From: Elusimicrobia bacterium GWC2_61_19
Lineage (GTDB): Bacteria; Elusimicrobiota; Elusimicrobia; Elusimicrobiales; UBA9959
NCBI GenBank assembly: GCA_001799795.1
Contig: MGUD01000019.1
Location: forward strand, 1-54,283
DNA length: 54,283 bases
Reading direction: 5' to 3'
Shown here: positions 35,349 through 35,495 of the stretch, in pieces
Layout: every line of letters starts with the position of its first letter
Position numbering within the stretch: position 1 is the first letter of the stretch
Position numbers and translations under genes: made by a program
The notes under the pieces: model-generated
Seen by the model: the letters and a program-made list of their open reading frames with translations, nothing else
Told to the model about the DNA's origin: nothing
Database searches by the model: none

Positions 35349-35495
35349 ATGTCTAATCCGATGATAATTGAAACTAAGGGCTCCGGTTGTGCGGCCTGCG
35401 ACGATTGCGCCATGTGTGCGGCATGTATTCCCGGCATGAATATTGTCGGCCTTCTGGCCGGTATCGCTGGAGCCGGTACGATATCTAATTTCTAG
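35349..35495 (+). CDS. Sactipeptide RiPP precursor, 48 aa: MSNPMIIETKGSGCAACDDCAMCAACIPGMNIVGLLAGIAGAGTISNF
   Basis: Hand-translated; TAAGGAG RBS at 35337-35343; five Cys at i+3 spacing; SboA-like leader; directly upstream of an AlbA-like radical SAM gene. Confidence 0.9.
   Translation: MSNPMIIETKGSGCAACDDCAMCAACIPGMNIVGLLAGIAGAGTISNF

Follow-up and report, generated by a model that had tools for sequence, protein, structure and literature searches.

The analysed window is a stretch of 54,283 nucleotides of contig MGUD01000019.1 from Elusimicrobia bacterium GWC2_61_19. Across 34-40 kb its GC content drops from about 0.61 to 0.52-0.54, and this region holds a low-GC cassette of about 5 kb consisting of the genes for a secreted TPR protein, a small peptide, a radical SAM (rSAM) enzyme and three ABC transporter components. 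The features of the locus, all on the forward strand, are as follows:

34217..34290 (+): tRNA-Gly(GCC), left edge of the low-GC cassette (ARAGORN; Rfam RF00005, 70.3 bits)
34521..35336 (+): secreted or periplasmic TPR protein, 271 aa (TPR_2, E 4.4e-07; hydrophobic segment at residues 4-22)
35337..35343 (+): Shine-Dalgarno sequence TAAGGAG, five bases 5' of the ATG (read directly)
35349..35495 (+): precursor peptide gene, ATG, 48 codons plus TAG (read from the sequence)
35349..35381 (+): putative leader or recognition segment, residues 1-11, with the motif MSNP-x-I-x-E-x-K (conserved N-terminus)
35388..35426 (+): Cys ladder C14-C17-C20-C23-C26, proposed thioether donors (conservation in 39 peptides)
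35427..35492 (+): turn I27-P28-G29 and hydrophobic Gly/Ala-rich tail, proposed acceptors in the phase 31/34/37/40/43/46 (profile alignment)
35547..35605 (+): GC-rich hairpin without U-tract in the spacer between peptide and rSAM genes (hairpin alone, z -2.75)
35650..37026 (+): radical SAM/SPASM peptide maturase with RRE-like N-domain, 458 aa (PF04055, 3.6e-23; PF13186, 1.6e-07)
37019..37972 (+): ABC transporter ATPase of the DrrA or lantibiotic-protection type (PF00005, 2.1e-29)
37923..38630 (+): membrane protein, presumed ABC-2 permease 1 (synteny; four or more hydrophobic segments)
38627..39319 (+): ABC-2 permease 2 (PF12730, E 4.5e-04, 20.7 bits against a cut-off of 27; about six hydrophobic segments)

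The probable precursor gene and its cassette

An earlier note on this DNA had described an unannotated 48-aa ORF at 35349-35495 with a TAAGGAG ribosome binding site and five Cys at i+3 spacing, and we confirmed both the exact translation and the coordinates. The Cys are located at positions 14, 17, 20, 23 and 26 (CxxCxxCxxCxxC), and of the 348 ORFs of 25-129 aa that the six frames of the window contain, no other has a C..C..C or C..C..C..C pattern. The gene is present as a single copy both in the window and in the whole genome, and the identical peptide is represented in a public protein collection by one member sequence from 7 contigs. No Pfam or NCBIfam model matches the window peptide, including the Pfam family Subtilosin_A (PF11420, gathering score 25 bits) at E values up to 1. 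In comparison with the closest relative, the second peptide copy of locus L121, 24 codons differ synonymously and 7 non-synonymously, with 5, 2 and 28 substitutions at codon positions 1, 2 and 3, and this third-position bias indicates purifying selection on the ORF. Furthermore, the orthologous peptide genes have AGGAG-like sites in front of them as well. Judged by sequence comparison, 35349-35495 is a real, conserved coding gene of a peptide family. No RNA run was listed for the region 35100-37100, and the DNA data sets containing the locus are groundwater, sediment and soil metagenomes.

The order TPR-peptide-rSAM-ABC-permease-permease is conserved among related loci while the flanks differ, and the cassette is patchily distributed within one Elusimicrobia family. 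For the TPR gene, ATG 34521 is the true start; the longer GTG ORF from 34263 crosses the tRNA gene. Orthologues of the TPR protein are encoded immediately upstream of the peptide genes in five loci (L017, L018, L019, L020, L021); in L124 an orthologue is present too, and there the TPR gene is directly followed by the rSAM gene without a peptide gene in between; an atlas search with the TPR protein returned generic TPR clusters only. The ABC ATPase scores 206.9 bits with TIGR01188 and 137.1 bits with TIGR03740, both below the cut-off, and is syntenic with both permease genes in L016, L018, L019 and L021. Permease 1, which has no Pfam or NCBIfam match, shares 27-51% identity with its orthologues in these four loci. 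Direct repeats of the tRNA-Gly end (att-like) were not found around the cassette; therefore, an integrated island is a suggestion that is based on the drop in GC content and on flanks that differ between loci, and the tRNA-Gly is a possible insertion landmark. A scan of the cassette genes and of flanking genes in the window and in L017-L021 detected no peptidase domain, in a genome that is 66% complete.

The spacer at 35493-35652 folds at -62.5 kcal/mol (z -3.6) and none of 200 shuffled sequences is as stable. Strong GC hairpins occupy the same place in L121, L137, L018, L019 and L021, a weak one is found in L016 and none in L122. The spacer sequence itself is not conserved among the relatives and has no match in Rfam. 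The hairpin may act as a partial terminator or as a transcript stabiliser.

The radical SAM enzyme and its predicted contact with the peptide

The rSAM gene starts 154 bases downstream of the peptide gene. Among 67 NCBIfam families the best match of its product is AlbA, the subtilosin A maturase (NF012164, 212.5 bits, E 7.6e-63, covering AlbA positions 89-430 of 442), followed at a distance by the next family with 111 bits. As the equivalog cut-off of the AlbA model is 850 bits, the similarity of the enzyme is insufficient to fix its chemistry. The model of StsB is also found among the NCBIfam matches (84.8 bits), whereas the model for SCIFF-type maturases is not among the best 25, all of which score at least 59 bits. 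In 30 homologues C123, C127 and C130 (CxxxCxxC) are invariant, and so are C343, C361, C402, C405, C411, C414 and C428. The predicted structure of the enzyme (pLDDT 85) has its best fold matches, N-domain included, in SkfB, SuiB and CteB. SkfB is the best match among solved structures, both by sequence (3.1e-20) and by fold (E 3.8e-23, TM 0.63/0.74, 440 alignment columns). Residues 4-86 are modelled as a beta-sheet with three helices (pLDDT about 77-93), and the only Pfam match of the N-terminal 110 residues is a weak one to PqqD (E 0.19).

A complex model of peptide and enzyme reached a score of 0.61, compared to 0.01 for the best control, and passed a mark that is reached by 58 of 80 solved complexes and by 2 of 110 mismatched pairs. 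The runs share at least 36% of their contacts, and the pLDDT of the partner is at least 38. Confident contacts connect peptide residues 1-11 with rSAM residues 37-47 and 63-89, and we predict from this model that the N-terminal segment of the peptide docks on the RRE-like domain of the enzyme. As similar complexes (SuiB-SuiA, CteB-CteA) have already been solved, this pass may also reflect likeness to, or memory of, known structures.

The peptide family and variation of its Cys ladder

To which extent the peptide belongs to the enzyme can be seen from their distribution. When 37 genomes of the same genus were searched with both queries, the rSAM orthologue was present in 7 and the peptide in the same 7, and three further genomes of the same family also carry the peptide gene followed by the rSAM gene. 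Among the metagenome loci with an rSAM of at least 44% identity, 12 of 13 have one to three peptide genes upstream. At 28-33% identity six of seven loci still have one or two: five with four-rung forms with a long leader, and L135 with two seven-Cys copies with a short leader; the seventh locus has 152 nt of upstream sequence. A scan of genome contigs with a broad rSAM alignment, which consists of generic rSAM motifs, yielded at least 80 loci with rSAM identities of at most 31%, mostly archaeal and heme/NirJ-like, and the Elusimicrobia orthologues are absent among the matches listed; the scan is therefore hardly informative on distribution. Inspected by eye, none of the small C..C..C ORFs beside these enzymes, among the matches listed, has four rungs or the leader motif.

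The family was recovered by searches anchored on the rSAM; when the peptide was the sole query, a word-indexed search across 5.8 billion proteins retrieved no sequence other than the query. For this family, sequence searches from the peptide fail where enzyme-anchored searches succeed. Searching 1.84 billion representatives with a profile yielded 18 matches, 17 of which are peptides of 42-55 aa with the same design, and the remaining one is a protein of 464 aa (P0115). Marginal matches of the peptide profile in three genomes (G012, G394 and G043; E 4e-4 to 8e-3) lie inside long frames with no adjoining rSAM and were treated as noise.

Altogether there are about 40 distinct relatives, whose ladders comprise 4-7 Cys at i+3 and nearly always start at residue 14 (32 of 35 full-length peptides with a short leader). 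Relatives of the window locus contain two to three non-identical precursor copies in tandem. C14, C17 and C23 are shared by all 39 aligned peptides, with conservation of 90% or more for C20; the Cys at i+3 are the only strictly conserved core residues, and the residues between them are not conserved. The ladder is thus kept in relatives beside orthologous rSAM genes, and it was on such conservation in homologous loci that the earlier note had made its reading depend. That note had further understood the five Cys as an extension of a thurincin-type core, but five turns out to be the commonest state of a variable ladder and not a one-off: four Cys occur in 8, five in 26, six in 3 and seven in 2 of the 39 peptides. 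Tail length and rung number correlate weakly (Spearman 0.34, with non-independent rows). The peptides of L018 and L127 are nearly identical and have the same tail, although they differ by one rung, which indicates that not all Cys need to be linked.

Four of the 39 peptides have sub-threshold matches to PF11420 (best E 2.5e-05), three of which, scored singly, reach 17-21.8 bits and stay below the 25-bit cut-off, and the peptides of L135 carry a turn, D-G-P-[IV]-P-D, whose counterpart in the alignment is the subtilosin turn. When the family profile, in which positions equal the residue numbers of the window peptide, was compared to 177,635 PDB sequences, subtilosin A (1pxq, E 0.022) ranked first and thurincin H (2lbz, E 0.51) second, both being weak matches.

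Relation to known systems, proposed maturation and alternatives

In these alignments the conserved ladder is followed by a turn and by a tail that corresponds to the half bearing the acceptors in subtilosin A and in thurincin H, and due to the periodicity of the ladder the pairing of Cys with Cys is ambiguous by multiples of three. According to passages of a review (PMC8172795), the acceptors are Phe22, Thr28 and Phe31 in subtilosin A and Asn19, Thr22, Thr25 and Ser28 in thurincin H, and all of them map within profile positions 34/37/40/43. Cys4, Cys7 and Cys13 of subtilosin A fall on ladder positions and its acceptors on 34/40/43; the four i+3 Cys of thurincin H align with C17, C20, C23 and C26 and its acceptors with 34/37/40/43, in a weak alignment (E 0.51, accuracy 0.55). 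Two registers had been proposed in the earlier note. Homology supports the phase of N31/G34/A37/A40/G43 (or 34/37/40/43/46), whereas the alternative 32/35/38/41/44 is left unsupported. The comparison drawn there is borne out for thurincin H, whose ladder of four i+3 Cys ends in C-A-A-C in the PDB chain 2lbz and in passages of the review (PMC8172795), and a SboA leader of 8 residues is consistent with the 43-aa precursor and the 35-residue product given in the literature passages. Its central proposal, a precursor of the subtilosin/thurincin H type that is served by the neighbouring rSAM, is supported by the conserved ladder, the AlbA match, the top PDB matches of the profile and the modelled leader docking.

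Besides the enzyme, the locus shares with the sbo-alb system of Bacillus subtilis the short leader and an ABC ATPase gene 3' of the maturase gene. In contrast to subtilosin with its three Cys, the window peptide has five that are evenly spaced, and the host is a diderm Elusimicrobia MAG instead of a member of the Bacillota. The cassette adds a secreted TPR gene and two permease genes and does not contain a protease-cyclase of the AlbE/AlbF type, so that head-to-tail cyclisation is unlikely. The thn system (ThnA-ThnB) of Bacillus thuringiensis is similar with respect to the leader (9 residues, from a 40-aa precursor and a 31-residue product), the ABC transporter in the cluster and the tandem precursors, three in thn and two to three in relatives of the window locus compared to the single copy in the window. 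The ladder described here has one rung more than that of thurincin H, and up to three more elsewhere in the family; the candidate acceptors are mostly Gly/Ala and not Asn/Thr/Ser, and neither a ThnP-like protease nor a regulator was seen in the window cassette.

The reduced gene set resembles the peptide-rSAM-ABC core sboA-albA-albC without albE/F of Thermococcus and Caldicellulosiruptor, which, according to passages of a recent preprint (bioRxiv 10.64898/2026.07.27.741052), also has no leader protease or cyclase, comprises an additional conserved protein without assigned function and shows signs of horizontal spread. As far as these passages go, the bacterial carriers in that survey are Bacillota only (11 genomes) and the peptides keep a three-Cys pattern, in contrast to the 4-7 Cys found here; our loci come from Elusimicrobia and have a secreted TPR protein as accessory. 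StsA/StsB, a sactipeptide system which passages of PMC10288494 describe with three Cys-Gly sactionines, shows that Gly can serve as acceptor, and this would apply to G34 and G43; a Gly acceptor can be linked at C-alpha only. The window enzyme is, however, far less similar to StsB than to AlbA, and the precursor design differs. SkfB, the best structural match with its RRE-type N-domain, installs one thioether and has a twitch-type [2Fe-2S] auxiliary cluster according to passages of PMC8172795, in contrast to the seven SPASM Cys of the window enzyme. The sactipeptides covered in those passages come from Bacillota and have one to four sactionines. In a literature search at the level of abstracts on sactipeptides, ranthipeptides, RiPPs and radical SAM enzymes of Elusimicrobia(ota) we found no description of this family and no paper on "five thioether" or "five sactionine" peptides; the supplements of PMC10288494 and of the 2026 preprint could list related precursors.

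From the sequence data we consider it likely that the 48-aa ORF encodes a sactipeptide-type RiPP precursor that would be folded into a nested hairpin with four or five thioether links. In this pathway, the first 8 to 11 residues would serve as short leader, which in the model binds to the RRE-like N-domain of the rSAM/SPASM enzyme. By analogy to known sactisynthases, the enzyme would remove hydrogens from C-alpha positions of the C-terminal half, which is rich in Gly and Ala, and join these carbons to the thiols of the ladder, and the peptide would be zipped around I27-P28-G29 with four or five rungs, as expected from homology. The pairs could be C26-G34, C23-A37, C20-A40, C17-G43 and C14-S46, or the same set shifted one rung inward, starting at N31. 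As the cassette contains no protease or macrocyclase, the product is probably linear, and the leader may be retained or cut by a housekeeping protease. The three ABC genes would export the product and/or protect the producer. The secreted TPR protein is a putative accessory and, speculatively, may handle the hydrophobic peptide in the diderm periplasm. The location of a low-GC cassette beside tRNA-Gly and its patchy occurrence in one family fit a mobile bacteriocin-like trait.

In an alternative reading the peptide would be a true rSAM substrate with a different geometry, namely thioethers to non-alpha carbons as in ranthipeptides, or short i to i+3 rings that lie inside the ladder or adjoin it and are not nested. 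The enzyme has CteB among its fold matches, and the CteB product has been reassigned to non-alpha links; sequence by itself does not reveal the chemistry. Asp18 and Asp19, which the earlier note had named as possible ranthipeptide acceptors, fall between ladder positions of the window peptide, but neither they nor acidic inter-Cys residues in general are conserved in the 39 peptides. Unnested topologies do exist, for example in streptosactin (passages of PMC8172795), but the top two PDB matches of the peptide profile are both nested-hairpin sactipeptides. For the enzyme, AlbA is the best model, without a SCIFF-type maturase among the best 25 matches, and passages of PMC10288494 describe a high similarity between AlbA and ThnB and a large distance of both from the ranthisynthases, which are in turn highly similar among themselves. 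The predicted Gly acceptors, if used, would allow only a C-alpha link (PMC10288494). For these reasons we regard non-alpha or un-nested linkage as unlikely.

Slightly less probable still is a different reaction of the enzyme, such as epimerisation, C-C or C-O cross-linking or formation of a Cys heterocycle, with a ladder that serves disulfides or metal binding. Enzymes of the AlbA type share a clade with enzymes of other chemistries (passages of PMC10288494), both SuiB, which forms a Lys-Trp cross-link, and EpeE/YydG, an epimerase, are among the fold matches, and three of the 39 peptides match 4Fe-4S domains. These Fer4 matches are weak (E values of 0.01 and above), and the peptides have nothing else of a ferredoxin fold; moreover, a strictly conserved core of i+3 Cys alone is expected of thioether donors, and the tail aligns with halves that bear acceptors in subtilosin A and thurincin H. 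That the ORF is untranslated, or that its product is a Cys-rich membrane or metal-binding peptide which stays unmodified and whose gene is simply a neighbour of the rSAM gene, seems very improbable to us. By its hydrophobicity the tail could form a membrane helix, and CxxCxxC occurs in Fe-S proteins too, but the strict co-occurrence in the same 7 of 37 genomes and in further loci, the strong ribosome binding site with the third-position-biased divergence, the tandem duplicated copies in relatives and the modelled leader-RRE docking with clean controls all argue against it.

Within the favoured sactipeptide reading we would raise a bolder version tentatively, and have our doubts about it: the family might represent the most densely stapled sactipeptides seen so far, with a modular ladder of five links here and up to seven in L135, installed by one AlbA/ThnB-type enzyme largely on Gly/Ala acceptors, and handled in the diderm host by a dedicated secreted TPR protein in place of a protease or cyclase. 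If this is true, sactipeptides outside the Bacillota would have a new logic of export or immunity. In any case, the peptides constitute a sactipeptide-like family that is clearly related to known members yet uncurated, in an uncultured groundwater phylum. Due to the short leader, the single maturase and the natural variation of the ladder between 4 and 7 Cys, it offers a compact system for expression (about 50 aa plus one enzyme), which could show how a sactisynthase of the AlbA/ThnB type counts and orders its rungs and whether Gly and Ala serve as acceptors. Furthermore, the family is a possible source of very rigid and possibly antimicrobial hairpin peptides.

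A small Cys-ladder gene and its neighboring radical SAM enzyme

The features below, from the tRNA to the second membrane protein gene, form a co-directional block, and the next gene, encoding aspartate carbamoyltransferase, is convergent.

34217-34290, +, tRNA-Gly(GCC), at the exact left boundary of a low-GC stretch
ATG at 34521, +, start of a TPR protein of 271 aa with one N-terminal hydrophobic segment
35337-35343, +, Shine-Dalgarno sequence TAAGGAG, 5 bases ahead of the peptide ATG
35349-35495, +, candidate precursor peptide gene, ATG start, 48 codons, TAG stop
35493-35649, +, structured spacer (154 nt) from the peptide gene to the rSAM gene
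35650-37026, +, radical SAM/SPASM protein (rSAM), 458 aa, with Radical_SAM and SPASM domains
37019-37972, +, ABC ATPase like DrrA and lantibiotic-protection ATPases, below cut-offs
37923-38630, +, membrane protein
38627-39319, +, membrane protein

The translation of the small frame is identical to that in the earlier note, with five Cys at i+3 spacing (residues 14, 17, 20, 23 and 26), and the ribosome binding site claimed there was read directly in the DNA. Of the window's 348 six-frame ORFs of 25-129 aa, no other contains C..C..C. Used alone in a word-indexed search of 5.8 billion proteins, the peptide matched only itself, and it matched no Pfam or NCBIfam model. A search for homologous small ORFs beside related rSAMs, as the earlier note had suggested, was nevertheless productive. 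Orthologues of the rSAM with 46-62% identity occur in six further genomes of the same genus, each with one to three small ORFs of the same design immediately upstream. A ten-peptide profile matched seven of 43 genus genomes, plus one marginal match, and within the 37 genomes searched with both queries the rSAM occurs in exactly these seven. The same profile added three genomes from 401 of the phylum, all from the same family and all with the peptide followed by an rSAM orthologue, and gave 18 matches among 1.84 billion representative proteins, 17 of them 42-55-aa peptides of the same kind. Scanning metagenomes with the rSAM family yielded 13 loci with at least 44% identity, several of which duplicate genome loci, with upstream peptide genes in 12; at the exception (L124, 1405-3645) a TPR gene is followed directly by an rSAM (58% identical), and the precursor may have been lost or be encoded elsewhere. 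Seven further loci have an rSAM at 28-33% identity, six with upstream peptide genes and the seventh with just 152 nt of sequence upstream.

The rSAM homologues carry public names of Elusimicrobia MAGs, the window DNA is present in groundwater metagenome runs, and the source genome is a 1.36-Mb assembly, 66% complete. It also encodes a second rSAM/SPASM protein (contig C17, 23152-24099, in a 409-aa frame), 29% identical to that of the window.

Compared with its closest relative, the second copy at locus L121, the gene shows 24 synonymous and 7 non-synonymous codon changes, and the substitutions at codon positions 1/2/3 number 5/2/28. From this third-position-biased divergence, together with the rSAM-linked homologues, we conclude that the gene is coding, conserved and genetically linked to the rSAM. 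An alignment of 39 family peptides has C14, C17 and C23 in every member and C20 in at least 90%, and thus the Cys pattern, on whose conservation the earlier reading depended, is retained in homologous loci. The ladder has four rungs (one Cys each) in 8 peptides, five in 26, six in 3 and seven in 2; the five-Cys ladder is therefore real, but it is the commonest form and not the special extension it had been taken for. The N-terminus M-S-N-P-x-I-x-E-x-K is conserved, and of the 35 full-length peptides with a short leader, 32 have their first Cys at residue 14. Behind the ladder follow a turn of variable length and a Gly/Ala/Val-rich tail with the recurring motif A-G-x-A-G-x-G-T or V-G-V-D-G, in which G38 is well conserved. 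Near-identical peptides at L018 (2974-3111) and L127 (908-1054) differ by a clean three-residue indel of one rung, with the tail unchanged, which suggests gain and loss of whole rungs. Two variants stand at the margins of the family. One is found at L135, beside an rSAM 31% identical to that of the window:

L135, 1649-1831 and 1871-2053, tandem 61-aa peptides with seven Cys at i+3 and a short leader

Their tail is correspondingly longer (29 residues past the last Cys), and of all members they come closest to subtilosin A (PF11420, E 0.0017, one copy scanned). The other comprises five of the loci at 28-33% identity (L133, L134, L138, L139, L147), where a four-rung ladder with a T-P-T-P-D turn lies behind leaders of ~45-60 residues; this shared ladder suggests one peptide superfamily with two leader architectures.

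Probable maturation enzyme and linkage chemistry

By a wide margin, the best of 67 NCBIfam matches of the rSAM is the subtilosin maturase AlbA (212.5 bits, E 7.6e-63, AlbA positions 89-430), followed by NirJ2 (111), SkfB (92.8) and StsB (84.8 bits). Because every one of these scores is below its cut-off, the enzyme is not an AlbA equivalog. C123/C127/C130 and C343/C361/C402/C405/C411/C414/C428 are invariant in 30 homologues. The AlphaFold model (pLDDT 85, pTM 0.86) resembles the RiPP maturases SkfB, SuiB and CteB most closely, in alignments that take in the N-domain (residues 4-86), a sheet with three helices whose sole Pfam match is PqqD (E 0.19). The predicted enzyme-peptide complex scored 0.61 versus 0.01 for the best control; of solved complexes 58 of 80 attain this mark, against 2 of 110 among mismatched pairs. 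Runs share at least 36% of their contacts, with a partner pLDDT of 38 or higher. The confident contacts all join peptide residues 1-11 to enzyme residues 37-47 and 63-89, which would correspond to the RRE mode of leader binding. Since structures of the SuiB-SuiA and CteB-CteA complexes have been solved, this prediction is to be read as likeness and not as proof of binding.

On the peptide side, Pfam Subtilosin_A gave sub-threshold matches in 4 of 39 relatives (best 2.5e-05). Searching 177,635 distinct PDB sequences with the 39-peptide profile placed subtilosin A first (1pxq, E 0.022, accuracy 0.91) and thurincin H second (2lbz, E 0.51, accuracy 0.55), ahead of two Fe-S proteins with E > 2. With AlbA as the top enzyme match, the subtilosin/thurincin-type reading of the earlier note holds at the sequence level. 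Since the alignment of the window peptide with the profile has no gaps, profile positions equal residue numbers of the peptide: Cys4/7/13 of subtilosin A align with C17/C20/C26, and Cys4/7/10/13 of thurincin H with C17/C20/C23/C26. The acceptors listed in the review PMC8172795 (Phe22, Thr28 and Phe31 in subtilosin; Asn19, Thr22, Thr25 and Ser28 in thurincin H) align within positions 34, 37, 40 and 43. The tail is anchored by G38/G41, opposite Gly that come after acceptors in both known peptides, and by the L135 turn D-G-P-[IV]-P-D, which aligns with that in the 1pxq chain. Of two acceptor registers offered previously, N31/G34/A37/A40/G43 is in phase with these positions, whereas I32/L35/G38/G41/T44 is out of phase. 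Because the ladder is periodic, alignment does not fix the Cys-acceptor pairing, and a fifth link could run inward (N31) or outward (S46).

Three points favor linkage at C-alpha (sactionines) over that of ranthipeptides. According to PMC10288494, AlbA and ThnB are highly similar and distant from the ranthisynthases, which resemble one another, and the best 25 of the 67 NCBIfam matches include no maturase model of ranthipeptide type. The same paper groups AlbA-type enzymes in one clade with others of different chemistry, which counts against over-reading these points. Asp18/Asp19, considered earlier as possible ranthipeptide acceptors, are not conserved: residues between the Cys, these two included, vary across the 39 peptides, and the alignment contains no conserved Asp/Asn/Thr beside Cys. 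Gly occupies several predicted acceptor positions of the window peptide, and a Gly acceptor permits linkage at C-alpha alone (PMC10288494). We consider it fairly probable that the adjacent enzyme matures the product of this gene into a thioether-stapled peptide of the sactipeptide type.

Organization and possible mobility of the cassette

The spacer folds with z -3.6, and none of 200 shuffles was as stable. Of seven other loci tested, five (L018, L019, L021, L121, L137) have strong GC-rich hairpins at the same place; these and the window hairpin lack U-tracts and their sequences do not align. We infer that the hairpin might be a device for a high precursor:enzyme transcript ratio.

For the TPR gene, the mechanical ORF call was a 357-aa GTG ORF from 34263. 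Its first 86 codons (34263-34520) cross the tRNA-Gly gene and lack conservation; this start was rejected in favor of ATG 34521, because the longer frame runs through the tRNA. The hydrophobic segment is read as a signal peptide. No peptidase domain was found in the cassette genes.

The order TPR, peptide(s), rSAM, ABC ATPase and two permeases is syntenic in L018, L019 and L021; L016 reaches a contig edge after the peptides, and L017 is without the ATPase and two-permease set. Features of these loci are:

L017, 5552-7255, fused ABC exporter (ABC_membrane + ABC_tran), upstream
L017, 10309-11955, 548-aa protein without Pfam match, downstream of the rSAM
L016, 3112-3183 and 6014-6087; L017, 12028-12101 and 14725-14796; L021, 3859-3930, tRNA-Cys/tRNA-Met genes

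The window flanking genes cysS, PAP2 and pyrB were not found at any of these five loci. GC content is 0.52-0.54 over 34-40 kb versus ~0.61 on either side, the low-GC stretch being ~5 kb long. This dip, the patchy distribution (peptide in 7 of 43 genus genomes) and the non-syntenic flanks suggest a mobile cassette and horizontal acquisition; no att-like repeat was found around it.

The tRNA-Cys and/or tRNA-Met genes of L016, L017 and L021 are at most a few kb away from the cassette, and in the window cysS (cysteinyl-tRNA synthetase, 31797-33218) lies two genes upstream. This proximity could be coincidence, mark insertion hot-spots or reflect a link to the Cys-rich product.

Proposed place among known sactipeptides

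The 2021 review PMC8172795 describes characterized sactipeptides with 1-4 sactionines, all from Bacillota, and predictions in a few other phyla. A 2026 preprint (bioRxiv 10.64898/2026.07.27.741052) reports that Thermococcus and Caldicellulosiruptor have a minimal sboA-albA-albC pathway lacking albE/F, and the bacterial carriers in its survey are Bacillota only. Our literature search, run on articles without their supplementary files, found neither such peptides in Elusimicrobia nor a mention of "five thioether" or "five sactionine". On sequence grounds we file the family as an uncurated one in the subtilosin/thurincin branch of sactipeptides, within which it would be set apart by its modular ladder of 4-7 Cys and its predicted Gly/Ala-rich acceptors, and further distinguished by a putatively secreted TPR accessory, a cassette with no protease and a diderm host.
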